Shown: positions 2,800-51,400 of the stretch, one piece after another | Layout: each line of letters starts with the position of its first letter | Position numbering within the stretch: the first letter of the stretch is position 1 | Assembly: GCA_963422385.1 (NCBI GenBank) | Contig: OY729432.1 | Span: 1,237,666 to 1,301,665, forward strand | Direction: 5' to 3' | From: Candidatus Binatia bacterium | GTDB lineage: Bacteria > Desulfobacterota > Binatia > UBA9968 > JAJDTQ01 | DNA length: 64,000 nucleotides | The notes under the pieces: model-generated | Seen by the model: only the letters and a program-made list of their open reading frames with translations | What the model was told of the DNA's origin: nothing | The model's database searches: none | Program-made: the position numbers and the translations under genes

Positions 2800-4710
2800 T
2801 CACGGCGAGCTTCGCTCCGTCTCCTCCTTCAAGGTCTCCAGCTCGGTCCAGCGCTCCACGGCCCGGTCGAGGGTGGCCTTGGCGGCTTTGAGATCGTCCA
2901 GGACCGGCTGGACGCTGGCGAAGGGCCGCGCGTAGAAGTCGGGCTGGCGGGTCTTCTCCTCCAGCGCGGCCACGGCCTGCTCCATGGCCTCGATGCGGTC
3001 CGGCAGCCCGTCCAGTTCCAGTTGCAGCTTGTAGCTGAGCTTTGTGGGGCGGGACCTCGTCTCACGCCGGTCGCGAGCCGGTTCCCGGGCGGCCTTGCGC
3101 TTCGGGTCGTCGGTGACGTTCAGGGCCTTGCCACGCCTGGCCCAGTCGCTGTAGCCGCCGGCGTAGGGCTGAATCCGGCCCGAATCCTCGAACACCAGGG
3201 TGCTGGTGACGCAGTTGTCGAGAAAGCTGCGGTCGTGGCTCACCACCAGCAGCGTGCCCCGGTAGGCCACGAGCTGCTCTTCCAGCACTTCCAGGGTCTC
3301 GATGTCGAGGTCGTTGGTGGGCTCGTCCAGGATCAGCAGGTTCGCCGGCCGGGTGAGCAGCCGGGCCAGGATGACGCGGTTGCACTCGCCGCCGGACAGC
3401 GCGGCCACCGGGCTCATGGCCCGCTTGGCACTGAAGAGAAAGCCGCTGAGGTAGCCGACGACGTGGCGCGGTTTGCCGCTCACCATGACGTGGTCGCGGC
3501 CGTCCGCCACGGTCTCGGCCACGGTCTTGTCGGGGTCGAGCTCCCGCCGCAGTTGGTCGAAATAGCCGATCTCGAGGTTGGCGCCCGGCTCCACGGTCCC
3601 GGAGTTCGGGGTGATCTCGCCCACGAGTATACGCAACAGCGTGCTCTTGCCGACGCCGTTGTTGCCGATGAGCCCGAGGCGGTCGCCGCGCATGATGCGG
3701 AGCGACAGGTCCCGGATCAGCGGCTCGGCGCCGTAGCCGTGGGTGACGTTGCGGAGCTCCACCACCTTGCGGCCCGACTGCCCGCCGTGCTGGACGTGGA
3801 TGCGCGCCTGGCCCTGAGGCTTGAGGCGCCGCGCCGCCTCCTCCCGCATGGCCATGAGGGCGCGCACCCGGCCCTCGTTGCGCGTCCGGCGGGCCTTGAT
3901 GCCACGCCGGATCCATTCCTCCTCCTGGGCCAGCCGCTTGTCGAACAAGGCGTCGCGCCGGGCGTCCTCCGCCAAGGTCTGCTCCTTGAGCCTGAGGTAG
4001 TTGTCGTAGGTGCCGGGCCAGCTCGTGAGCCGGGTGCGGTCCAACTCCACGATGCGGGTGGCCAGCCGCCGCAGGAACGCACGGTCGTGGGTGATGAACA
4101 GGACGCTGCCCGCGTAGTTGTAGATCCGGTCCTCGAGCCACTGGATGGTGCTCAGGTCGAGATGGTTGGTGGGCTCGTCGAGCAGCAGCAACTCGGCGTT
4201 GCCGACGATGGCCCGGGCGAGCCCCACCCGGCGCTGCCAGCCGCCGGACAGTTCGTCCAGACGCCGGTCCGCCGGCAGGTCCAGCTCGCTCAGGACCGTA
4301 TCCACGCGCTGGTCCACGTGCCAGCCGCCGTGGGCGTCGATCTCCCGATGCAGCGCCTCCAGCTCCAGCAGGCCCTTGCGGTCCAGAGTCTCCATGGACC
4401 GGCGGCCGTAGAGGTCGATGAGGGCCTGGAGGTCCGCCAGCCCGGTGGCGACATATTCCCGTACCGTCTGCCGGAGCTCTTCGGGAAGCGCCTGCTCCAG
4501 CTCGCTGATCCGGATGCGGCTCTGGGTGTGGATCTCCCCGTCGTCGGGCTCGATCCGGCCGGTGATGAGACGGAGCAAAGATGTCTTGCCGGCACCGTTG
4601 CGGCCGATCAGACAAACCCGCTCCCCCGGCTCGATGGCGAGTTCGGCGTGCGCCAGCAGCCGCTGGTCGCCCAACCGGAGGGATACGTCTTCGAAGCTTA
4701 CGAGGGGCAT
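2800..4710 (-). CDS. uup: ABC-F family ATPase Uup (two ABC domains plus C-terminal coiled coil)
   Basis: 636 aa with two Walker A motifs (GRNGAGKTS, GNNGVGKST), LSGG signatures, an inter-domain KARRTRNEGRVRAL linker and C-terminal KLSYKLQ..L..LP coiled-coil. Collinear with E. coli Uup (635 aa). Confidence 0.85.
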   Translation of the reverse strand: MPLVSFEDVSLRLGDQRLLAHAELAIEPGERVCLIGRNGAGKTSLLRLITGRIEPDDGEIHTQSRIRISELEQALPEELRQTVREYVATGLADLQALIDLYGRRSMETLDRKGLLELEALHREIDAHGGWHVDQRVDTVLSELDLPADRRLDELSGGWQRRVGLARAIVGNAELLLLDEPTNHLDLSTIQWLEDRIYNYAGSVLFITHDRAFLRRLATRIVELDRTRLTSWPGTYDNYLRLKEQTLAEDARRDALFDKRLAQEEEWIRRGIKARRTRNEGRVRALMAMREEAARRLKPQGQARIHVQHGGQSGRKVVELRNVTHGYGAEPLIRDLSLRIMRGDRLGLIGNNGVGKSTLLRILVGEITPNSGTVEPGANLEIGYFDQLRRELDPDKTVAETVADGRDHVMVSGKPRHVVGYLSGFLFSAKRAMSPVAALSGGECNRVILARLLTRPANLLILDEPTNDLDIETLEVLEEQLVAYRGTLLVVSHDRSFLDNCVTSTLVFEDSGRIQPYAGGYSDWARRGKALNVTDDPKRKAAREPARDRRETRSRPTKLSYKLQLELDGLPDRIEAMEQAVAALEEKTRQPDFYARPFASVQPVLDDLKAAKATLDRAVERWTELETLKEETERSSP

Positions 4711-6074: not shown

Positions 6075-6425
6075 GCGATTCCTCCTCGATGATCGGCCAA
6101 TCCCTGTCCGGGGAAGCCTGCCGCGGGGATCTCGTGAATCGAGTTGCTTCTGCGCCGCGGCCCCGTGGCTCTTTTCGTCGTTTGCCCCACACTGTAGCGG
6201 ATTGTCGGATGAAGGGTAAGAAAGGGGAGCGCTGAAATTCCCGTTTCCCGTGGTCGCCGCAGTCCGGGAAGACCACGCTCTTGAGAAGGCTCTTCGAGCC
6301 GCGGTTCCGCTACGTCTCCCTCGATCCGCCGGACCTTCGGGCCACCTTTGCCTCGGACCCATGCGTGCTTCTGGGGCAGTTCCCCCGGGTTGACACGTGA
6401 CGTCCGGACGTCGATACTGTGGTTC

Positions 6426-7615
6426 ATGGAACAAGGCAGATTACGAAATTTTCCTGGACAGGTACGAGACGCCATCTTGCAGGTGCTGGTGCTGACGTCC
6501 CAACCGCTGTCCGCCAAGGAGATCGAAAGCCGGGTGCGGAAAATCACTGGCCCAACGCCCGCATCCTCAATCAGGTCTTACCTGAGGCTCAATACGCCGG
6601 GGCTTTTCGTTCGCGAAGAGCGTGGCGTATACGCTTTGCGAACACGCCGAAGCCGCGGCACCGGCACTCAAAGAGAGCTCGGCTACCCACGGCAATGGCA
6701 AGCGCCGTTCCATTGTGGGAAAGCGACCATCGTGAACGCCGACTGCTTCGACTGGATAGAAAGCCGGGAAGCGAATAGTCTTCATGCCGTGGTGACCGAT
6801 CCGCCTTACGGTTTGCACGAGTATACACCCGAGCAGCAGCAAAAATTGCGCAAGGGTAAGGGCGGCGTCTGGCGCGTCCCGCCCTCCTTCGATGGGAACA
6901 GGCGTTCTCCGCTTCCCCGTTTCACTACTCTGACCCGGGATCAACTGGAGCAATTGGAGACGTTTTTCTTCGTCTGGGGCAAATCCCTGCTTCCCAAGCT
7001 CGTTCCCGGCGCACATGTCGTAGTAGCCTCCAATCCCCTCGTTTCCTACATCATTTCAAGGGCATTGGCCGATGCCGGCCTGGAGAGAAGGGGAGAGATA
7101 GCGCGCCTGACCATGACCATGCGGGGGGGGGAGATCGTCCGAAGGCGGCGCATGAAGAGTTCAGCGAAGTGAGCGTCATGCCGCGTTCGATGTGGGAGCC
7201 GTGGGTGGTATGCAGGAAGCCTTTCGACGGCCGCGTTCAGGACAACTTGAGGAAATGGCAAACGGGAGGCTTTCGCCGCCCCACACCGGACAAGCCCTTC
7301 GGCGATGTCATCGCATCGGGGCCGACGAGAAAGAGCGAAAGGGCCCTTGCCCCCCATCCGAGCCTGAAACCGCAGGCATTCATGAGACAACTCGTTCATG
7401 CCGTGTTGCCCTTGGGAGAGGGTGTGATTCTCGATCCGTTTGCAGGGGCGGGCTCTACGTTGGCAGCGGCGGAGGCGGTCGGTTACGAGAGCATCGGCGT
7501 AGAGAAGGATCCTGAATTTTTTTCCCTGGCGTGCTCGTCGATACCGAAGCTTGCCGGCCTGAAGATCAACGGCAACACTAGAGCATGTATATCCAGCTAT
7601 CCCGAAGTTTCATGA
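6426..7615 (+). pseudogene. HTH-fused beta-class DNA methyltransferase (DPPY motif before FxGxG), frameshifted in a G9 homopolymer
   Basis: Frame 0 (6426..7172) has an N-terminal winged-helix-like segment then ...VVTDPPYGLHEY... and stops just after the G run at 7123-7131. Frame 2 (7169..7615) continues ...HPSLKPQAFMRQLVHAVLPLGEGVILDPFAGAGSTLAAAEAVGYESIGVEKDPEFF. Adding one G (G10) fuses the two frames into one full-length methyltransferase. The locus is lower-GC than its flanks. Confidence 0.7.
7123..7131 (+). repeat. G9 homopolymeric tract inside the methyltransferase ORF (frameshift site)
   Basis: Nine consecutive G at 7123-7131. A G10 tract would give one full-length methyltransferase reading frame. 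Confidence 0.9.
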
Positions 7616-7994
7616 TGCCGTCTTTGTGTAGCGTGGCGGTGCGTGTTCCGAGCTCCCCTCTCGGGTTCTTCCTGAAATCATCCATTGTCACCTTGCCCGG
7701 ATAAATCTCCGTGAAAGTCATCGGCGTCCTGTCCACGGCCGGTTCGGAAACGGTATCTACCGCGTAGACGAAAACACACATCCACTGGTCTCTCGCTCCG
7801 TGGGTATCGACAGCGCCTCCGGCTTTTCTTGTGGTTTTTATTTCCACGCCTTCGGCTCCGGCCTTGCCAGCGTTGCCGGCATAAAGCCCTCTCACGATGA
7901 GATCAGGATGACCATTGAAATACCTGTTTTCCGTCAAAACGCGAGAATGATTGGCGAGGCTCGCCGTCAACATGTCGGAAAGCAGGCCCGACAT
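7578..7994 (-). CDS. PD-(D/E)XK restriction endonuclease-like protein (candidate Type II REase, possibly the C-terminal part of a split gene)
   Basis: 138 aa: ...NRYFNGHPDLIVRGLYAGNAGKAGAEGVEIKTTRK... gives a PD...(E)IK catalytic motif. Convergent with the methyltransferase and overlapping it by 38 bp; lower GC; weak SD for this ATG. Confidence 0.5.
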   Translation of the reverse strand: MSGLLSDMLTASLANHSRVLTENRYFNGHPDLIVRGLYAGNAGKAGAEGVEIKTTRKAGGAVDTHGARDQWMCVFVYAVDTVSEPAVDRTPMTFTEIYPGKVTMDDFRKNPRGELGTRTATLHKDGIMKLRDSWIYML

Positions 7995-8170
7995 GATCGC
8001 ATGTCATCAAGCCGCTGCAAACCCTTCTCGGCAAGATGCGAATTGACGTCGTAAAAGAAATCGTAGACGTCCTGCATCGCCATCTGGAAATCCTGCTGTC
8101 GCAGTCCATACGGAGGTTCTGCCTTCCGATTGAACCTGGAGCTTTCAACAGTATTGCGTATGGTTGACAT
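7967..8170 (-). CDS. small ORF (67 aa), possibly the N-terminal segment of the endonuclease gene separated by a frameshift near 7995-8003
   Basis: ATG at 8170 with GGGAG 6 nt upstream. Translation MSTIRNTVESSRFNRKAEPPYGLRQQDFQMAMQDVYDFFYDVNSHLAEKGLQRLDDM... has natural, non-GC-junk composition and ends 28 nt inside the 7578..7994 ORF in another frame. The rest of the 429-aa ORF in the track is antisense to the SDR gene and spurious. Confidence 0.35.
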   Translation of the reverse strand: MSTIRNTVESSRFNRKAEPPYGLRQQDFQMAMQDVYDFFYDVNSHLAEKGLQRLDDMRSCRACFPTC

Positions 8171-8308
8171 GGCAAACTCCCAACAGCGCGAATTCCTGGT
8201 AGTTTCCAGCAACCTCGACTCTTGATCCTTCATCTCACGCTTGGAAATCAACCGGCAATCGGATAAGGGAGAGTGAGCCGGAAGGGGCAAAATCCAAGGA
8301 GGCAGGCA

Positions 8309-9133
8309 ATGGCGAAACCGAACGGCGACGAGCATCCCATGCTGAGGGAGGGGTTGGGGCGGCTGAGAGGCAGAGTGGCCATCATCACCGGCGCCAACAG
8401 CGGCATCGGCCGGGCCACCGCCCGGCTGTTCGCGCGCGAGGGGGCCAACGTTCTGTGCTGCGACATCCAGGAGACCATGACGCCGCGGGTGGACGAGCTC
8501 ATCATCAAGGATGGCGGCGAAGCCACCTTCCTGAACGTGAACGTGACCGCGGCCGGCGGTCCCGAGGAGATGGTCCGGACCGCCATCGCACGGTACGGGG
8601 ACGTGGACATCCTCTACAACAACGCCGGCGGCGGGATACGCAAGCAGGCTCACGAGTTCACGGACGAAGAGTGGAACTTCATCATGGACCTCAACCTGAA
8701 CGCCATCCAGAGGAGTGTCCGTGCGGTCATCCCCCACTTCATCGAGAAGGGTAGCGGCAACATCGTCAGCACCGCGTCCACCTTTGGACTGCTGGCCTCG
8801 GGCAACTACCCGGCCTACTGCGCCACCAAGGCGGCGGTGATCAGCCTGACCCGGCAGATGGCGCTGGACTACGGTCCCAGGGGCATCCGCGTGAACTGCA
8901 TCTGTCCCGGCGCCACCGAGACCCCGCGCTTCCGCGGGCATCCGCCGGTACCTTCGCTGCAGGCCGCCACCCCCGAGCAGCGCAAGCGCATGGCCGACAG
9001 CAACAAGGCGCTGCTGCGAATGGCGCGGCCGGAGGAGATGGCCTACGGCGTCCTGTTTCTGGTGTCCGACGAGGCGTCCTTCGTCACCGGCCACGCCCTG
9101 GTGGTGGACGGCGGCCAGACCATCGCCGTGTAA
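8309..9133 (+). CDS. SDR-family NAD(P)-dependent oxidoreductase
   Basis: TGANSGIGRATA Rossmann motif, NNAG, YxxxK (YCATKAAV) active site; AAGGAGG 6 nt upstream of ATG 8309. Confidence 0.88.
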   Translation: MAKPNGDEHPMLREGLGRLRGRVAIITGANSGIGRATARLFAREGANVLCCDIQETMTPRVDELIIKDGGEATFLNVNVTAAGGPEEMVRTAIARYGDVDILYNNAGGGIRKQAHEFTDEEWNFIMDLNLNAIQRSVRAVIPHFIEKGSGNIVSTASTFGLLASGNYPAYCATKAAVISLTRQMALDYGPRGIRVNCICPGATETPRFRGHPPVPSLQAATPEQRKRMADSNKALLRMARPEEMAYGVLFLVSDEASFVTGHALVVDGGQTIAV

Positions 9134-9185: not shown

Positions 9186-9905
9186 TTGTATTGCTGGCGC
9201 GGCACGGTGGGGGTGGTGAAGCCGACGCTGCGGCCCGGGTCGCTGGAGACCTTCATCCGGCTGATGCCGGAGGGGGTGTGCGTGGTGCCGCGCTACGTCG
9301 GCATCCGCACCGGCACGGAGGCGGAGTTCGACGAGGCCATCACCATGGCCGAATCCAGGGTGGCCGAGCTGGCGGAGATGGGGGTCGACCTGGTGGTGAT
9401 CCAGGGGGTGCCCCCGATCATGCTCCGAGGCTACCGCTTCGATGGCGAGCTGACCGAGCGGCTCAGCCGGCAGTACTCGGTACCGGTGCTCACCGCCGCC
9501 ACCGCGCAGGTGGAGGCGTTGCGGGCGCTGGAGGTGCGGACGATGGCCGGCCTCTCGTACATCCAGGGCGAAATGAACGCGAAGTTCGCCGACTTTTTCG
9601 AGCAGGCCGGCTTCAAGGTGACCGCCATGAGGGAGATCGGGGGCGTGACCTTCGCCGACGCCGGCCGGATTCCGGCCGAGGATATCTACCACCAGGCCAA
9701 GAATGCCTTCGTCGAGTGCGGCGGGGAGTGCATCTACCTTCTGGGGGCGGGCTGGGACTGCCTGCCCGTCATCGAGTCCCTGGAAGAGGACCTTGGGGTG
9801 CCGGTGGTCACCAACCTCAACGCCGACGTGTGGGCCACCCAGAAGCGCCTCAAGATTCACGAGCCCGTTGCCGGCCACGGACGGCTGCTCGGGACGCTGC
9901 CGTGA
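9186..9905 (+). CDS. Asp/Glu/hydantoin-racemase-superfamily protein (arylmalonate decarboxylase / maleate isomerase-like)
   Basis: 239 aa with the two-lobed racemase-like pattern (...VVIQGVPP..., ...YLLGAGWDCLPVIESLEEDLGVPVVTNLNA...). TTG start with AGGAGG 7 nt upstream. Confidence 0.72.
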   Translation: MYCWRGTVGVVKPTLRPGSLETFIRLMPEGVCVVPRYVGIRTGTEAEFDEAITMAESRVAELAEMGVDLVVIQGVPPIMLRGYRFDGELTERLSRQYSVPVLTAATAQVEALRALEVRTMAGLSYIQGEMNAKFADFFEQAGFKVTAMREIGGVTFADAGRIPAEDIYHQAKNAFVECGGECIYLLGAGWDCLPVIESLEEDLGVPVVTNLNADVWATQKRLKIHEPVAGHGRLLGTLP

Positions 9906-10062
9906 CCGGCCGTCCGCGGTTGGAAGACTTGAGGTATGGACATGGCGCCATCATGGCGCCCTTCGACTTCGCTCCGCTACGCCTGCCTTGAGCTTGCCGA
10001 AGGGCTCGGAACGAACGTTTGCGGTTTGACGGGATACCGGGATCCGAAAAAAAGGGAAGCAC

Positions 10063-11986: not shown

Positions 11987-12411
11987 TCATCCGCCCGACG
12001 CCGCAGGCCCCGTTGACATCTCTCCCCATCCCTTCCACCGTGAGCCAGATCCCTGAACGCACCCCGCCGGTGCGGCAGTCGGCACCGCGTTCCACCCCTG
12101 CACAACCCCTCTGCCACCATCCTCCGACGCACCATGTCCGCAGAGAACGAGAGCCGGGCCGTAAGAGCGCGGGCAGAGATTGGATATCCGGGAGAGCATC
12201 CCCGCTGTTCCCAACCGCCTGCACAAAGGAGACGGCACCATGACTACCAGTGTCACCTCGCAATCCTGGTAACGCAGAGGGGTCTCCCGGGCAATCTGAA
12301 GAAATTCGCACCACTGTATCTTGTCGGGCATTCAGAGCGCCGGAACCGTAGAGTTAATTCAGAATGGCGGGATCGTCGGAAGTATCGTAACGGCAGGAAC
12401 TACGGCTCACG

Positions 12412-42564: not shown

Positions 42565-43556
42565 TTCTGTTTCCCCTGTAGCGCCCGCCCGAAAGCGCGC
42601 GCGTTGTACAGCATCAGCCCTTCGTAGGTGGAACGCTCCGGATCGCCGGGGTCGCCCAGCGGGTCCACGAGGACGGTCCCGGCACCGAACTCGCCGGCCA
42701 TGGTCTGCGCCACCCGCGGGCTCAATTGCGGTTCCACCAGAATGGCCCGGATCCCCGCGGCCCGAGCGCTGCGCACCAAGTCGGCGACCTCCCTCGGCGT
42801 CGGCTCCTCGCCGCCGAACTCCTGGACTACTGCGACCTCCTCAAGGTCATACCTTTCGGCAAAGTAGCGCCAGGCATCGTGAAAGGCGATGAACTTGCGC
42901 GACTTCGCCTTGCCGAGCTCCCGTCTGATCTGCCCGTCCAATGCCGTCAACCTGTTTCGGAAGTGGTCGCTACGCCTCTGGTAGTAACTCTTGCCGTCCG
43001 GGTCCGCGGCGATGAGATGCTCGACCACGGCCGGGACCACCGCGTCTCTCACCCGGATGGGGTCCAGCCAGAAATGGGGGTCGAACGCTTCGCCTTCCTT
43101 TTCACCGCCCCCCTTGGCAGCCTGTTCCTCGCCGTGATCTTCGTTCTCCCTGACGGCTGCCTTCTCCTCACCGTGTTCCTCGCCGTGATGATGGTCCTCC
43201 CCCTCCAGGGGCTTCAGGTCCGGAACCTTCATGAGAGCCAGGGTCTTGAGGGGGTGGGATGCCGCCCCCAGGAGCCTTTCCGACCACGCGTCGAAGCCTC
43301 CGCCCACGACGACAAAGAGCCGGGCGCGCGAAACCTTCCTTAAATCGCTCGGCACCGGCTCGAAAGTATGCGGGCTCGCGCCCGGCGGCACCAGTGAATC
43401 CACTTTGACGCGCTCACCGCCCAACTCGCCAACGATATAGGTCACGGGAATCACGCTGGTCACCACGCCAAGGGGCTGTCCGCTTGCCAGTGCCGGGGCG
43501 GCACCGATCCAACAGCTTGCGATGACCGTGAGCACAAGGCTTCCCAGTCTCTTCAT
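42561..43556 (-). CDS. znuA: metal ABC transporter substrate-binding protein (ZnuA/TroA family) with His-rich loop
   Basis: Signal peptide MKRLGSLVLTVIASCWIGAAPALA. Cluster-9 SBP pattern and a His/Glu/Asp-rich loop (EDHHHGEEHGEEKAAVRENEDHGEE) typical of zinc-binding ZnuA. The start lies in a 21-bp tandem duplication (alternative start 43577). Confidence 0.82.
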   Translation of the reverse strand: MKRLGSLVLTVIASCWIGAAPALASGQPLGVVTSVIPVTYIVGELGGERVKVDSLVPPGASPHTFEPVPSDLRKVSRARLFVVVGGGFDAWSERLLGAASHPLKTLALMKVPDLKPLEGEDHHHGEEHGEEKAAVRENEDHGEEQAAKGGGEKEGEAFDPHFWLDPIRVRDAVVPAVVEHLIAADPDGKSYYQRRSDHFRNRLTALDGQIRRELGKAKSRKFIAFHDAWRYFAERYDLEEVAVVQEFGGEEPTPREVADLVRSARAAGIRAILVEPQLSPRVAQTMAGEFGAGTVLVDPLGDPGDPERSTYEGLMLYNARAFGRALQGKQN

Positions 43557-43595
43557 TGCGTCATCCTCCTGAATCATTGCGTCATCCTCCTGAAT
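43554..43595. repeat. perfect 21-bp tandem duplication (x2) covering the SD plus ATG of znuA
   Basis: cattgcgtcatcctcctgaat repeated head-to-tail. On the coding strand attcaggaggatgacgcaATG x2, giving MKRLGSL... or MIQEDDAMKRLGSL... Confidence 0.9.
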
Positions 43596-43597
43596 CT

Positions 43598-44224
43598 TCA
43601 GTCTGCCGGATCCCTTTCGAGCGCCCGCAGATCCTTCAACAGCACGTCGGGATCCGGAGCGGATCCGAAGTAGGCAAAGCGCATGTGGCCGTCCCCATCC
43701 GCCACCACGGTAAGCGTCGTGTGCTCGATGAGCCCCCGTGCCAGCCGCCGCACGCTCACCCCGAACTCCTGCCACACCGGGGCCAGCTCCCGGGCCTCGC
43801 CCGTGAGCCACGACCAGCGGACGGCGTCCGCTTTGTGCCGCCGGCTGTAGGCCTTCAGCACCTTCGGCGTATCGACCTCGGGATCCGTGGTGATGGAGAG
43901 GAAGCGGATGTCCCTGGCCTCCGCGGGTTTCATGTGCTCTCGGACGATCTTGAGGCTCGCGGTCAGCAGCGGACAGACGTCCGGGCACGATGTGTACATG
44001 AAGTTGATCACCACCGGCTTGCCCCTGAGTTTCCGGAACGCCACGCGCTTGCCGTTCTGGTCGGTGAGGACGAAGCTGCCGATGAGGACGTTCATCTCGC
44101 GTCTTTCCGCGAACTTGACCTTGAGGATGGACTTGTGGGTGAGTGCGTCCGCCCCCGGCATGAACAGGACCGCCAGCGCCAGCACCGTAACTCCCAGCGT
44201 CCTCGAGAAAAGAACCCCCCTCAT
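43598..44224 (-). CDS. SCO1/SenC-family copper chaperone (thioredoxin-like)
   Basis: 208 aa with N-terminal TM/signal and CPDVCP metal-binding motif. Confidence 0.8.
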   Translation of the reverse strand: MRGVLFSRTLGVTVLALAVLFMPGADALTHKSILKVKFAERREMNVLIGSFVLTDQNGKRVAFRKLRGKPVVINFMYTSCPDVCPLLTASLKIVREHMKPAEARDIRFLSITTDPEVDTPKVLKAYSRRHKADAVRWSWLTGEARELAPVWQEFGVSVRRLARGLIEHTTLTVVADGDGHMRFAYFGSAPDPDVLLKDLRALERDPAD

Positions 44225-45713: not shown

Positions 45714-46388
45714 TCACTGCACGTAAATCTTCCTGGCGGCTTCCAGGCCAAGGACGACCTGGTCTGTCTGGTCTTCGTCCACCCGGAGGCTAATGGTACC
45801 CAGCGACGGGGCGACGTCATCGACCATGATCGTCGATCCGGGACGGACCTTGTGATCGTAGAGGAACGAAAGCAGCCGCTCGTCGCGCACCCCGGTCTCG
45901 GTGATGCAGCGGAAGATGACCTCGGTGCCCGCTTCCACCGTATTCAGGGGGTTCCACTCCCGGCGCGGAGACGGCTGTCCCTTTACGGGTATGGGATTGC
46001 CGTGGGGGCAGGTGGAGGGATTGTCGAGGATCGCGCTCAGGCGTTCCTCCACCACCGGCGATATCGCGTGCTCCAGGTGGTGCGCCTCCTGGTGGGCCGT
46101 GACCCAGTCCAGCCCCAACAGGTCCGTCAGCAGCCGCTCTGTCAGAAAGTGCCGGCGCAGGATGGCCTCGGCGACCTCACGGCCCTTGAGGGTCAGGTAG
46201 ATGTTCTTGCGACGCTCCACCCTGACGAACTCTTCCTTCTCGAGCCGCCGCAGGGCGCTGAACATGGTGGAGGGCGTCACGCCGATCTCTTCCGCCACCC
46301 GCGCCGCGATGACCTGGTCGCTTTCCTCGGCCAGACTGTAGATGGCCTTCAGGTAGTCTTCGGTCGCTTCCGAGCGTTTTACGGCCAT
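45714..46388 (-). CDS. DtxR/MntR/IdeR-family metal-dependent transcriptional regulator with C-terminal FeoA/SH3-like domain
   Basis: N-terminal HTH (EDYLKAIYSL...), metal-site residues and C-terminal SH3-like domain; 224 aa. Confidence 0.85.
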   Translation of the reverse strand: MAVKRSEATEDYLKAIYSLAEESDQVIAARVAEEIGVTPSTMFSALRRLEKEEFVRVERRKNIYLTLKGREVAEAILRRHFLTERLLTDLLGLDWVTAHQEAHHLEHAISPVVEERLSAILDNPSTCPHGNPIPVKGQPSPRREWNPLNTVEAGTEVIFRCITETGVRDERLLSFLYDHKVRPGSTIMVDDVAPSLGTISLRVDEDQTDQVVLGLEAARKIYVQ

Positions 46389-46422: not shown

Positions 46423-46917
46423 TCACGCGCCGCCTTCCGTGCCGCCGTCCTTGTAAATCTGTTGAGCCAGGTAGTTCTCCCGGCCTACCTGCTGCATCAG
46501 GTTGAGCTGCGCCTCGATCCAGTCCACGTGACCCTCCTCGTCTGCCAGAATCTGCTCCAGGAGCTCGCGGCTCACGTGGTCTCCCGCTTCATGGCATGTC
46601 GCGATAACGGCGTGCAGCACCTTGATGGCGGCCTCTTCCAGCCCGAGATCGTTCTCCAACTGTTCCTTGACGGCCTTGCCCACCGTTATCTTGTCATAAC
46701 CGGCAACGTTGGGGACGCCGTCCAGCAGCAGGATGCGGTTGATGATCCGGTCCGCGTGCTGCATCTCCTCGATGGATTCCCTGAAGAGGGCGTCATCCAG
46801 GACCTGATACCCCCAATTGCGGCACATCCGCGAATGCATGAAGTATTGATTGATCCCGGTCAGCTCTTTCCGCAGCACGTCGTTGATCGCCTTGAGCACC
46901 CTCGGATCGCCTTTCAT
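46423..46917 (-). CDS. bfr: bacterioferritin
   Basis: MKGDPRVLKAINDVLRKELTGINQYFMHSRMCRNWGY... with ferroxidase-centre Glu/His and heme-ligand Met positions; 164 aa. Confidence 0.9.
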   Translation of the reverse strand: MKGDPRVLKAINDVLRKELTGINQYFMHSRMCRNWGYQVLDDALFRESIEEMQHADRIINRILLLDGVPNVAGYDKITVGKAVKEQLENDLGLEEAAIKVLHAVIATCHEAGDHVSRELLEQILADEEGHVDWIEAQLNLMQQVGRENYLAQQIYKDGGTEGGA

Positions 46918-47052: not shown

Positions 47053-48087
47053 CTAGGGAATGCCTACACGGTCGAAGATCCTGAGCGCCGTCGCCCGGTT
47101 CCGGGCGATCTTGACCATGTCGATGGTGTCCGCCTTGAACTTGCCCCAGGACTCCACGATGCCGGACCAGGGCACGCCGGGCTTCACGGGATACTCGAAG
47201 TTCTGCTCGGCGTACATCTTCTGTGCGAGGTCATCGCTCAGGAACTCAAGCAGCTTGACCGCGTTGTCCTTCCGCCCCGAGTGCCTGGTGACGCCGGCGC
47301 CGCTGATGTTCATGTGGGCACCGCGGTCCTTCTGGTTGGGGAAGAACACGTTGACGGCCTCCGCCCAGGCGATCTGCTTCTTGTTGGTGAGCATCTTGCC
47401 CATGTAGTAGGAGTTTCCGAGGGAGATGTCGCATTCGCCCGCGAAGATGGCCTTGACCTGGGCTCGGTCGTTGCCCTGAGGCTTGCGCGCCAGGTTGGCA
47501 TTGAGGCCCTTGGCCCACGCCTCGGCCTTTTTCTCGCCGTGATGAGCCACCAGCGAAGCAAGCAGCGCCACGTTGTAGACGTGTTGCGACGAGCGGATAC
47601 AGATGCGGCCCTTCCACTTGGGAGTGGCGAGGTCCTCGTAGGTCGAAAGCTCGCCCGCCTTCACCCTTTCCCTGGAGGCGTAGACGATGCGGGCGCGCCT
47701 GGTGAGCCCGAACCACAGACCCGAGGGGTCCCGGTCATGCGCCGGAACGTTGGCGGTGAGCTTCCCGCTCTTCACCGGTTGCAGCACCCCGGCTTCCACG
47801 GCGTCGTTGATCCGGCCGATGTCCACGGTCAGGACCACGTCGGCGGGGCTGTTCCTGCCTTCCTTCCGCAGGCGCGTGATCATCCCCTTGGGCGCGAACA
47901 CCACGTTGGTCCTGATCCCGGTCTGCTGGGTGAAGGCGTTCAGCATAGGCTTGATGAGGAACGGCTGCCGGTACGAGTAGATATTGACTTCCCCGTCCGC
48001 CAAGGCGTTTGCCGCAATGCCCACGGACAGGGCAGCGGCCGCCACCACGGACACGACAAAACTGCTCCCCGACATTCTTGCAGTCAT
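47053..48087 (-). CDS. Fe3+-type ABC transporter periplasmic substrate-binding protein (FbpA/FutA-like), orphan
   Basis: Family-1 SBP with signal peptide ...FVVSVVAAAALSVGIAANALA. The start region holds a 30-bp tandem duplication giving in-frame ATGs at 48075, 48087 and further upstream. Start set at 48087 (GGGGGAG 7 nt upstream). Confidence 0.75.
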   Translation of the reverse strand: MTARMSGSSFVVSVVAAAALSVGIAANALADGEVNIYSYRQPFLIKPMLNAFTQQTGIRTNVVFAPKGMITRLRKEGRNSPADVVLTVDIGRINDAVEAGVLQPVKSGKLTANVPAHDRDPSGLWFGLTRRARIVYASRERVKAGELSTYEDLATPKWKGRICIRSSQHVYNVALLASLVAHHGEKKAEAWAKGLNANLARKPQGNDRAQVKAIFAGECDISLGNSYYMGKMLTNKKQIAWAEAVNVFFPNQKDRGAHMNISGAGVTRHSGRKDNAVKLLEFLSDDLAQKMYAEQNFEYPVKPGVPWSGIVESWGKFKADTIDMVKIARNRATALRIFDRVGIP

Positions 48088-48134
48088 TGTCATGCTCCCC
48101 CTTGTTCTTGCAGTCATTGTCATGCTCCCCCTTG
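48075..48134. repeat. perfect 30-bp tandem duplication (x2) covering the SD plus ATGs of the Fe3+ SBP gene
   Basis: ttcttgcagtcattgtcatgctcccccttg x2. On the coding strand caaGGGGGAGcATGacaATGactgcaaga x2, an in-frame 10-aa duplication TRGSMTMTAR at the N-terminus. Confidence 0.9.
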
Positions 48135-48182
48135 GAGGGTTACTTCGGCTACATACTTCATTGATCACGGTAATGCAATACC

Positions 48183-48201
48183 TAAAGTTAGGCTAACACA
48201 A
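48183..48201. promoter_or_regulatory. IdeR/DtxR-type iron box (TAAAGTTAGGCTAACACAA), 15 of 19 positions matching consensus TTAGGTTAGGCTAACCTAA
   Basis: Perfect palindromic core GTTAGGCTAAC in the divergent promoter region between the Fe3+ SBP gene and the fused ABC exporter. A DtxR-family regulator gene lies 2 kb away. Confidence 0.55.
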
Positions 48202-48472
48202 TTTTTTTCTTTTGCCCGCAAACAGGATGCCGGCTGATCAAGGGGCCCTGTACGCCGGCCAGCCTTGTATTCGCGGCCATGACCTTCTAATGTCACGGGA
48301 CTGGTGTTGTGTCTCACAAGCAGGGTTAAGAAGATGCTCGGGATTTTTTGTTGCCGGCAAGGCGACGAGCACTGGCCAGTACCACGGGCGGAGGAGCAAC
48401 GCAGCCGACGACAAAAAGACCGGCGGATTTGTAAACCTGCTTGTGAGACGCAACACCGGGATCGGTGAATTC

Positions 48473-51400
48473 ATGTACCTGGACCGACGACTGCTGACCC
48501 ACACCCGCGGGGTGCGCGTGCGCATTGCCGCGGCCGCCGTTCTCGGCCTGTGCGCGGTGGCCGCCGGCATCTCGCGCCTGGCGTTTTCCGGGCTGATCAT
48601 CGCCGGGGTCCTCACCGGCGCCGCTTTCTCGTCGCTTGTCCCCTACCTGGCGGCCGTCGCCGGCTTCATCGCGCTACGCGCGCTGTTCCAGTATCTGCGG
48701 GATATGGTGAGTCAGGAGACCGCCGCCCGGGTGAAGGAAGGGCTGCACGACAAGCTATACCGGCACGCCCTCGACCTGGGTCCCGGGCACTTCAACCAGG
48801 AGCGAACGGGTGACGTGCTGGTCTCGCTGGGCGAGGGGGTGGAGCGGCTCCAGGTCTTCTACGGCCAGTTCCTGCCGCAGATGGTGGTGGCCGGGGTGGC
48901 GCCGGTGCTGATCTTCTTCCTGATGGCGTCCTTCGACCTAGTCATCGGGCTCATCTTCGTGGTCTTCGCCCTGCTGACGCTGGCGGCGACGCCGCTGTTC
49001 CTGCTCTTCACCGAAGAGAGCAGCCGGCGCCGGCGCACCTCCTACGGCGCCTTCGGCGCCGATTTCCTCGACGGTATCCAGGGCATCGCCACCCTCAAGA
49101 TCTTCGGCCGGAGCCGCAGCCAGGGGGAGCGCCTCGCGGACCGGGCGCGCCATCTCTACCGCACCACCATGGGCGTCCTGGCGGTCAACATGGTCTCCGT
49201 CGGCGTCACTACCTTCGGCATCCTCGGCGGCACCGCCTGCGCCCTGGGCTGGGGCGCCCTCCAGGTCAGCGCCGGCGACCTGGAGGTGCGCTCGCTGATC
49301 GTGATCCTGATCATGGGCGCGGAGATCTTCCGTCCCATGCGGGAGCTGATGATCCTGTACCACCAGGGCATCAATGCCATGGCTGCGGCCGAGGGCATCT
49401 TCGAGCTGCTGGAGGCACCGGTGATGGTGCGGGAGCCGGCGGCGGCCGAGGCAGCGGCCGGGACCTCCTTCGAGCCCGCCGTCCGTTTCGAGGACGTGAG
49501 CTTCGCATACCAGGAGGGCAGCCGCCCGGCCCTCCGGGACGTTTTCCTCGAGCTTCGCGCGGGCGAGAAGCTCGGCGTCGTGGGCCCCAGCGGCGCCGGC
49601 AAGTCCACGCTGGTCTCGCTGATGCTGCGCTTCGCCGACCCCCGGCAGGGTCGCGTCTTGCTGGGCGGCCAGGACATCCGCGCCATCCCCCTGCACGTCC
49701 TGCGCCGGCACGTCGCCGTGGTGGCCCAGGACATGTACCTCTTCTACGGCACCATCGCCGACAACCTGCGCATGGCCAAACCCGAGGCCACCCCGGAGGA
49801 GATCGCGGCGGCGGCCCGGGCGGCCAACATCCACGAGTTCATCGCCGGGCTGCCCGAAGGGTACGACACCGTGGTGGGCGAGCGCGGCGTGCGCCTCTCG
49901 GGCGGCGAGCGCCAGCGCATCGCCATCGCCCGGGCCATTCTCAAGGACGCCCCGATCCTGGTGCTGGACGAGGCGCTGTCGAGCGTGGACGCCCGGAGCG
50001 AGGCGGTGATCAACCAGGCGCTGCGCAAGCTCATGGAGGGGCGCACCACCCTGATCATCGCGCACCGGCTGTCGAGCGTCATCCACGCGGACCGCATCCT
50101 GGTGCTGGAACGGGGTCAGGTGGTGGAAACCGGCGGCCACGGCGCGCTGCTGGAGAGCGGCGGCACCTACGCCCGGCTCATGGCCGCCCAGGCCCAGGCC
50201 GGCGACGCCGAGGCGATGGCGGAGCGCGCGGCCCCGGCCGCGGCGGCCGAGCCCGAGGAAGCCGCCGAGACGCCCGCCACGCGAACCGCACGCGCGCGGG
50301 CGCCACTGGCCGCCCTCACGGTGCTGCGGCGGCTGGCGGAACTGGTACGGCCCTTCCGCCGGAAGCTCGCGGTATCGTTCTCCGCCGGGGTGCTCTTTCA
50401 GGCTTCGGTGGTGGGCGTCGGCGCGGCCGGCGCGCTCCTGGTGAGCCAGTTGATACGCGGCGAAGACATCGCGTTCCACCTGCTCCTGCTGGGTTCCATG
50501 GTGGGGCTGGCTTCCGTGCTTTCCTGGGCCGATTGCTGGCTGCCCCACGACCTCGCCTACCAGCTCCTGGCGGAGATGCGCATCGACTTCTACGACACAC
50601 TGGACCCGCTGGCGCCGGCCTATCTGACCCGCCGCCGCTCCGGCGATCTCGTGAGCATCGCCGGCGCCGACGTGGAGACGGTGGAGCTCTTCTTCGCCCA
50701 TACCATCACCCCGGCCTTCATCGCCGTAGTGGTTCCCGCCGGGATCCTGACGGTGCTGGGCCTGGTGGGCTGGCCGCTGATGCTGGCCCTGGCCCCCTTT
50801 CTGGTGCTGCTGGCGCTGTCGCCGTTCCTGGCGCAGAAGCGTTCGGACCGGCTGGGCGGAGCGGTACGCCGGGAGCTTGGGCACCTGAACGCCCACCTGG
50901 TGGACAGCATCCAGGGCATGCGCGAGGTGGTCTCCTTCGGCCACGAGAAGCGCCAGGTCGCCGCGGTGTTGGCCAACAGCCTGCGGCTCGCCAAGGCCCA
51001 GCTCGCGTTCCACAAGGACCAAGCCTTTCAGGCCAGCTTCAACGAGGCAGTGACCGGCATCGGCGCCCTGGCGGTGCTGAGCACGGGGGTCTGGCTCGTG
51101 AGCCAGCTCGAGATGGACCGGGCGCTGCTGCCGCTGGCCAGCGTGCTGGCGCTCCTGGCCTTCGGGCCGGTGACCGACGTCGCCCGCACGGTCAAGGAGC
51201 TGATGGAGACGCTGGAGTCGGGCCGCCGGGTGTTCGCGGTCAAGGACGAGCCCGTGCCGGTGCGGGACGGCGCCGGGGTGCCGGCGCTCGTCGGCAACGG
51301 CCACACCCCGCCGGCCATCCGCTTCGACCACGTGAACTTCGGCTACGACGCCGGCAACGGCTTGGCGCTGCGGGACGTGTGCCTCGACGTGGAGCCGGGC

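Follow-up and report, generated by a model that had tools for sequence, protein, structure and literature searches.

Analysis of a 64,000-nucleotide stretch of DNA from an uncultured Candidatus Binatia bacterium (contig OY729432.1; the whole stretch is referred to below as the window) revealed an exact tandem duplication of 30 bp at the translation-initiation region of a gene for an FbpA/FutA-type periplasmic Fe3+-binding protein (the fbpA-type gene). The duplication leaves the native initiation module intact and adds an identical module 30 nt upstream of it. Similar events are found at the starts of other metal-binding-protein genes of the Binatia clade, and together they form a small but non-random set. 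The reading that we favour, with somewhat less than even confidence, is that of a real, recent and lineage-specific event in a gene predicted to be under IdeR/DtxR-type control, by which twin modules of a Shine-Dalgarno (SD) sequence and an AUG modestly raise the output of the binding protein. The twin ribosome-binding site (RBS) itself is real and tolerated, and it is possibly adaptive. Coordinates of the features discussed are collected in Table 1.

Table 1. Features of the window on which the analysis is based (positions count from the first letter of the window)
Feature	Position	Strand	Basis
Exact 30 bp x 2 tandem duplication, 5' end of the fbpA-type gene	48075..48134	-	Tandem Repeats Finder
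Copy 1, promoter-proximal CAAGGGGGAGCATGACAATGACTGCAAGAA, new upstream initiation module	48105..48134	-	absent from 18/20 aligned relatives
Elements of copy 1	SD1 48131-48125; ATGs 48123, 48117	-	
Copy 2, gene-proximal CAAGGGGGAGCATGACAATGACTGCAAGAA, native initiation module	48075..48104	-	P0001, orthologue lengths, alignment A1
Elements of copy 2	SD2 48101-48095; ATGs 48093, 48087 (48087 = conserved, annotated start)	-	
FbpA/FutA-type periplasmic Fe3+-binding protein gene, 344-aa precursor	47053..48087	-	Pfam, PDB homology
Sec-type signal peptide MTARMSGSSFVVSVVAAAALSVGIAANALA, predicted cleavage before DGEVN	47998..48087	-	sequence features; predicted site
DtxR/IdeR-type operator-like palindrome, upstream of both modules	48183..48201		consensus search
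Putative promoter, uncertain: -35 TTGCAT 48178-48173, 17-nt spacer, -10 TATGTA 48155-48150	48150..48178	-	conservation only
Bacterioferritin gene	46423-46917	-	directly after the fbpA-type gene
DtxR/IdeR-family metalloregulator gene	45714..46388	-	Pfam Fe_dep_repress, Fe_dep_repr_C, FeoA
Second initiation-region duplication, znuA	43553..43596	-	Tandem Repeats Finder: period 21, 2.1 copies, 100%
Elements of the znuA repeat	ATGs 43577, 43556; SDs AGGAGG 43591-43586, 43570-43565	-	

Anatomy of the Duplicated Initiation Region

Tandem Repeats Finder reports the repeat with a period of 30, 2.0 copies, 100% matches and a score of 120, and it is the strongest tandem repeat of the window; the chance of an exact 30-nt tandem repeat in 64 kb is, by our estimate, of the order of 1e-13. 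Read on the minus strand, the duplicated unit comprises the SD sequence GGGGGAG, a ATGACAATG start pair and six codons, and the repeat is in frame within the open reading frame 47053..48168. An earlier sequence-only reading, which had described, in front of the signal peptide, an exact in-frame duplication of SD and start codons, is borne out in this respect, as is the 10-residue insertion TRGSMTMTAR (equivalently, a prefix MTARTRGSMT) that it derived, given translation from the upstream start. The five in-frame ATGs that it listed do exist (first bases 48123, 48117, 48093, 48087 and 48075), but the SD-like spacing that it ascribed to all of them holds for two: only 48117 and 48087 stand at the canonical 7 nt from GGGGGAG, each with an SD of its own, whereas 48123 and 48093 lie 1 nt past GGGGGAG and the nearest SD to 48075 is 19 nt off. 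The last of these ATGs shares only its A with the repeat and was therefore already present in the single-copy ancestor. The local context of the two modules is identical from -17 to +13.

Several origins of the repeat were considered. A second row of the Tandem Repeats Finder output (2.3 copies, 89%) reflects the 8-mer GGGGAGCA, which recurs 30 nt deeper into the gene; slippage between pre-existing 8-nt repeats of this sequence was rejected, as it predicts TGTC before the middle copy, where CAAG is observed. A footprint of transposon target-site duplication was likewise rejected, given the unequal unit lengths of this and the comparable duplications described below (19, 21, 21 and 30 bp) and the absence of element remnants. 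Microhomology at the junction amounts to 0 nt at the 30-bp repeat and 2 nt at the znuA repeat of the window. With two 30-nt units and a preserved frame, the locus also differs from a phase-variable contingency locus, which has many units of 1-9 nt.

Native Start and Ancestral State

The exact protein found in the database (P0001, encoded on a 3.95-Mb contig) is 344 aa long with the N-terminus MTARMSGSS, corresponding to ATG 48087, and almost all of ~100 close homologues are of the same length; the native start is, therefore, 48087. Translation from the upstream ATGs would yield products of 354 aa (48117) or 356 aa (48123). We have aligned 21 upstream regions (alignment A1, the window and 20 relatives), and they share a common architecture of an operator-like block, TTGCA, GAAGTAT, the SD GAAGGGAGA and the ATG. 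The 30-nt insertion is present in the window alone. A single-copy state is found in 18 of the 20 relatives, including the closest one (L010, 91% at the amino acid level), in which AGGAGAAGCATGACAATGATCGGAAGAACGTTAGGG matches the single-copy version of the window base for base. Judging from this comparison with close relatives, the 30-bp duplication is derived, lineage-specific and, since its two copies are identical, recent.

The relatives are complete chromosomes of metagenome-assembled genomes (MAGs), of the kind obtained from PacBio HiFi sponge metagenomes (PMC12648040). The exact protein is on record on no other contig, and a second genome of the species was not found. The exact DNA, with a gap of 0-30 nt allowed, gave 0 matches in the Joint Genome Institute (JGI) metagenomes, and a metagenome scan for related loci returned three further Binatia loci only, all single-copy. 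An artefact of long-read metagenome assembly or consensus would be in line with these results and with the single assembly available for the species. We nevertheless consider it very unlikely: the only two strong tandem duplications of the window (this one and that of znuA) both fall on start sites, in multiples of three and in frame, where random errors would mostly fall in coding sequence and in any frame, and five different strain contigs carry an analogous znuA array, next to a paralogue with one copy.

A side observation concerns the start pair itself. Two strain variants of a sister species (P0124, at ~3990-4010 of locus L163, and P0122 with the same N-terminus) have ACG in place of the conserved ATG, and their annotation begins at an ATG located two codons farther upstream (MTTIGR...); initiation at the first ATG of the ATGACAATG pair is thus feasible.

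Gene Product and Proposed Working of the Twin Modules

The product matches the Pfam families SBP_bac_6/8/1/11 and is homologous to the PDB structures of Mannheimia FbpA (1Q35, E=8e-106) and Synechocystis FutA (2PT1, E=2e-92); the database name of its homologues is Fe(3+) ABC transporter substrate-binding protein (Fe-SBP). In the 1Q35 alignment, VYNV and NSYY of the query stand opposite SYNV and NSYYY of the chain, the tyrosines being presumably the iron ligands of 1Q35-type proteins. A positive n-region, a 17-residue hydrophobic core and ALA at -3/-1 before DGEVN point to a cleavable Sec signal of 30 residues, with the cleavage site itself placed by prediction. The alignment with solved mature FbpA chains begins at query residue 32, and the 10-residue extension therefore falls in the removed signal peptide. 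The duplication extends the n-region only, the charge of which changes from +1 to +3; creation of a twin-arginine (Tat) motif was rejected, an RR pair being absent.

In the working that we propose, one mRNA controlled by the IdeR box would carry two identical in-frame SD-AUG modules 30 nt apart, and 30S subunits would bind either module comparably because their contexts are identical. Initiation at the upstream start would yield a Sec-compatible precursor with 10 extra n-region residues (MTARTRGSMT), and both precursors would be cleaved at ALA|DGE to the same mature iron-binding protein, so that the duplication would be nearly cost-free to the product. The most likely consequence would be a modest rise in initiation rate (<2-fold) and more binding protein per transcript. 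The lengths of the duplications that contain an ATG are informative here: 3/3 are multiples of three (30, 21 and 21 bp), with a chance of 1/27 if frame were irrelevant, which suggests that the upstream start is truly used, an out-of-frame upstream start being selected against.

The opposite effect has to be considered as well, namely that the upstream module serves as a decoy or occluding start, or gives a poorly exported precursor, and tunes the gene down. The spacing of 30 nt is about one ribosome footprint, so that the two sites could interfere, and the long isoform of ZnuA has a net-negative n-region. However, the +3 charge of the long Fe-SBP isoform favours Sec targeting, in-frame read-through would still give a functional precursor, and the co-occurring amplification of the same genes speaks against down-tuning. 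We regard such a negative role as highly improbable and as the least likely of the alternatives to increased output.

Recurrence at Fe-SBP and znuA Start Sites

The other strong tandem repeat of the window, and the only one besides that of the fbpA-type gene, lies at the start of znuA (Pfam ZnuA, E=5e-73), as the sequence-only reading had noticed. Here the SD AGGAGG and the ATG are duplicated as an exact unit TTCAGGAGGATGACGCAATGA, beginning 5 nt past the stop of senC/SCO1. The link drawn in that reading between the two genes is strengthened by independent duplications in both families elsewhere in Binatia. At an Fe-SBP gene of L004 (OZ243984.1), a 19-bp SD duplication (TTGTGAAGGGAGACCAAAC / TTGTGAAGGGAGATCAAAC) directly precedes the ATG and creates an in-frame GTG with SD spacing; L006, a near-identical Fe-SBP paralogue from that genome, has a single copy. 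At znuA of L010, which represents a sister species, TACAGGAGAAACGAAATGAA / TACAGGAGAAACGAAAATGAA (21 bp x 2) precedes the gene. Four more contigs, whose identity to L010 and among themselves is 98.8-99.5%, have an exact 21-bp x 2 repeat at znuA. Thus, znuA1 is two-copy in all five L010-type strain contigs, and the tandem paralogue znuA2, present in three of the four additional contigs, shares this upstream context, with only one unit. The units of the window and of the L010 type differ in both sequence and boundaries, and the two znuA events are therefore independent; a shared ancestral duplication was rejected on these grounds as well as on the existence of a single-copy paralogue.

Two weaker cases come from L161: the signal-peptide n-region of its Fe-SBP contains a 12-bp x 2.1 repeat (VGKAVGKA), and an SD repeat of 10 bp x 2 stands in front of a ZnuA-like gene. 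As a side observation, small tandem repeats (10-15 bp) occur more widely at or near metal-cluster gene starts of this locus (2797-2826, 3974-3994, 8011-8035 and 9469-9498; a 67-aa gene, the ZnuA-like gene, the Fe-SBP and a FecCD permease), and 6 of its 14 called gene starts are within 25 nt of one of seven repeats.

No other initiation-region duplication was found among 169 Fe-SBP starts in 160 loci. A filter for SD plus start, applied to ~2.2 Mb, returned only the cases above together with internal coding repeats, and of the 180 gene starts called in 17 loci, znuA1 alone scored. The sequence covered by these scans amounts to ~2.4 Mb, in which no further robust case turned up. Candidate start repeats at L006 11379, L015 18127, L069, L071 16102, L079, L146 and L152 were discarded as actually internal coding or intergenic. 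Most other tandem repeats are arrays of repetitive extragenic palindrome (REP)-like intergenic elements (GTCGAAGG..., GGGAATGACGG...) or repeats in the His-rich loop of ZnuA. For an enrichment test we have used the two replication events only, with ~62 pre-specified start sites out of ~680, and the chance of both falling in the two families is roughly p ~0.008.

The znuA loci show other forms of copy-number change. In-frame repeats, exact or nearly so, in the His-rich loop (21 bp x 4, EHHGHEQ, at L010 12869-12953; 39 bp x 6.3 at L017 20146-20389) indicate that the copy number of the metal-binding loop varies between species. Some strains of the sister species carry a tandem znuA pair (L162-L164, ~6300-9035), and in L010 the one znuA gene follows 70 bp left over from a znuA 3' end, together with a senC remnant (12212-12400); remnants and tandem copies together speak for segmental duplication at this locus and for decay. 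Most znuA genes of Binatia are preceded by a TTGACA promoter of their own with a TGAGAATAnnTTCTCA palindrome resembling a Zur box (L007, L009, L013, L015, L017, L028 and L062). The window (43577-43603) and the L010-type genomes are without it, znuA standing directly behind senC or its remnant. The apparent loss of the Zur-box promoter in both lineages that carry a znuA duplication fits selection for more binding protein, and so do the paralogue amplification (L004/L006; znuA1/znuA2) and the expansion of the His-rich loop. The event at the fbpA-type gene is one of a recurrent class of short tandem duplications of the SD (with or without the ATG) at fbpA-type and znuA genes, alongside gene duplication and His-loop expansion.

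The occurrence of one- and two-copy states in paralogues on single contigs raises the question of whether the repeat is, along the lines of the sequence-only reading, a reversible copy-number element, an array of 1-3 copies that slips within populations and acts as a rheostat for SBP translation. Identity of copies within a genome and their difference between species are also what repeated contraction and re-expansion would give. We find this improbable, because slippage would be slow with only two copies of a long unit, no polymorphism was seen at the Fe-SBP locus in the one genome of the species, the two-copy state of znuA1 in all five L010-type strains looks stable, and differing boundaries in two species favour independent events over a shared dynamic array.

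Selected Expression Effect or Neutral Debris

A number of observations weigh against increased output as the reason for the duplication. We have folded the fbpA and znuA leaders with one and two copies, and the unpaired probability of the SD barely changes (0.20 vs. 0.25-0.27 and 0.26 vs. 0.28-0.29), which leaves the duplication without a structural rationale; the translational tuning of metal-uptake genes proposed in the sequence-only reading, thus, goes beyond what folding supports, SD accessibility being much the same. Ribosomes elongating from the upstream start may transiently occlude the downstream site, which would keep any gain small. At znuA of the window, use of the upstream start changes the n-region charge from +2 to -1, and a net-negative n-region should, by its predicted charge, impair export, contrary to the notion that more is better at this gene. 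No more than four events, two of them in the replication set, underlie the enrichment at metal SBP genes, all of the sampled loci are metal-gene neighbourhoods, and significance is lost if only secreted proteins tolerate such insertions. The apparent metal specificity may simply mean that cleaved signal peptides tolerate being extended at the N-terminus. The single assembly of the species, mentioned above, is a further point on this side.

These observations bear on the main alternative, in which the repeat is neutral or slightly deleterious debris: a random duplication that persists in a cleaved signal peptide with the native SD-AUG intact and without a selected effect on expression. We consider this account distinctly possible, although less likely than not. 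Under it, the complete identity of the copies would simply mark a very young event, and the junction shows neither microhomology nor special structure; L161 has other small duplications in the signal-peptide n-region and near gene starts, and the unfavourable charge of the long ZnuA form as well as the non-significant enrichment with secreted proteins only as the denominator fall into place. It is less easily reconciled with the independent involvement of the same two gene families in different species, the retention of two-copy znuA across five strain haplotypes and the co-occurrence with paralogue amplification of the same genes.

A broader generalization of increased output, which we put forward as doubtful at present, is that SD-AUG tandem duplication in sponge-associated Binatia is a recurrent, selected form of "RBS dosage" for periplasmic metal-binding proteins. 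It would operate alongside gene duplication, specifically in exported proteins (where the added residues are discarded), and would perhaps be reversible by slippage.

Relation to Known Systems and Significance

The closest parallels known to us are adaptive short tandem duplications in bacterial 5' untranslated or RBS regions. An example is a duplication of 38 bp upstream of argB, at its ribosome-binding region, which arose during experimental evolution of E. coli; mutations of the argB 5' untranslated region, including this duplication, are reported to raise ArgB abundance (Morgenthaler et al., 2019, PMC6941894). The two cases share a tandem duplication of tens of bp at a ribosome-binding region, the argB product being limiting. 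Unlike that of argB, the Binatia unit includes the start codon and six codons, thereby adding a further in-frame start and lengthening the N-terminus, and the event is natural and recurrent across species.

Alternative in-frame starts that give rise to two isoforms are familiar from IF2 (alpha/beta), ClpB and CheA (long/short), where each mRNA likewise has two in-frame initiation sites, each with its own SD. Those starts are, however, old and distinct in sequence and give functionally different proteins, whereas the Binatia sites are identical copies from which the same mature protein is expected. Contingency loci made of simple sequence repeats, including those at iron-uptake receptor genes of Neisseria and Haemophilus, resemble our case in that host-associated bacteria vary the 5' ends of genes for metal acquisition by means of repeats; they differ in having many 1-9-nt units that switch expression on and off through frame or promoter spacing, whereas two 30-nt units, in a multiple of three, provide no on/off switch. 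Engineered tandem RBS and bicistronic-design cassettes also place two SD elements in series, the first translation keeping the second SD accessible and thus raising or stabilizing output. They are synthetic, and their upstream reading frame usually ends at the second start, whereas the upstream start in Binatia reads through in frame. Overall, this type of mutation is known; that SBP start sites are hit repeatedly and in parallel is, to our knowledge, new, no description of it having been found in the literature searched.

If output is truly raised, the Binatia cases would represent a natural and repeatedly used tuning of translation by RBS copy number, distinct from promoter mutation and from gene amplification. 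This would account for the accumulation of such duplications at exported binding proteins, from which the added residues leave with the signal peptide, and would place iron and zinc acquisition under ongoing selection in uncultured symbionts. A practical consequence is that such duplications mislead start-codon annotation and the prediction of N-termini and signal peptides; the annotated 344-aa product overlooks an equally good upstream start.

Upstream Control Region and Gene Neighbourhood

The operator-like palindrome has 3 mismatches to the 19-bp consensus TWAGGTWAGSCTWACCTWA and is the sole match in the window (0.01 expected), and the block is kept in the relatives of alignment A1. On this evidence, the fbpA-type gene is predicted to be under DtxR/IdeR control. 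The sequence-only reading had placed the duplication immediately downstream of an IdeR-type box; the box is indeed there, but it ends ~50 nt upstream of SD1. Near-invariance of TTGCA and GAAGTAT, 17 nt apart in the same alignment, marks the putative promoter. A scan for sigma-70 promoters and terminators gave nothing by its criteria, and a search of 47950-48520 against Rfam at E<=1 gave no match.

Downstream on the same strand follow the genes for bacterioferritin, the DtxR/IdeR-family regulator (0.7 kb from the fbpA-type gene), a UbiD-family protein and senC/SCO1, and then znuA, znuC and znuB. NCBIfam DtxR and MntR matches of the metalloregulator are both under their cut-offs. The cognate permease and ATPase (FbpB/C) are not adjacent to the fbpA-type gene in the window, which makes it an orphan SBP gene there; in L161, a FecCD gene adjoins the Fe-SBP gene. 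The succession of the fbpA-type gene (47053-48123), bacterioferritin and a DtxR-family regulator is an unusual operon for an SBP.

Some minor features were observed farther upstream and in related loci. Between the fbpA-type gene and a divergent gene for a fused CydDC-like ABC exporter (ATG 48473) lies a long imperfect inverted repeat (48303-48358 / 48404-48457; arms of 26 nt at 92% and 25 nt at 72% complementarity), a potential hairpin of ~155 nt without an Rfam family. A conserved block GACATTAGAAGGTCATGGCCGCGAATACAAGG at ~48262-48295 (minus strand) precedes the Fe-SBP promoter of almost every Binatia locus (L001-L019) and could be part of the promoter of the divergent exporter. In an unrelated AT-rich MAG (L071), duplications of 178 bp x 2 (98%; 9501-9855) and 31 bp x 1.9 (exact; 9890-9949) lie upstream of the Fe-SBP gene, in the promoter region and not at the start site. 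REP-like intergenic elements of the form CCGTTCGTCCTGAGCGTAGCG...GTCGAAGGAC are abundant in the Binatia loci, often as tandem arrays (e.g., L007 881-993; L014 4483-4767 and 19197-19262; L016 5936-6064).

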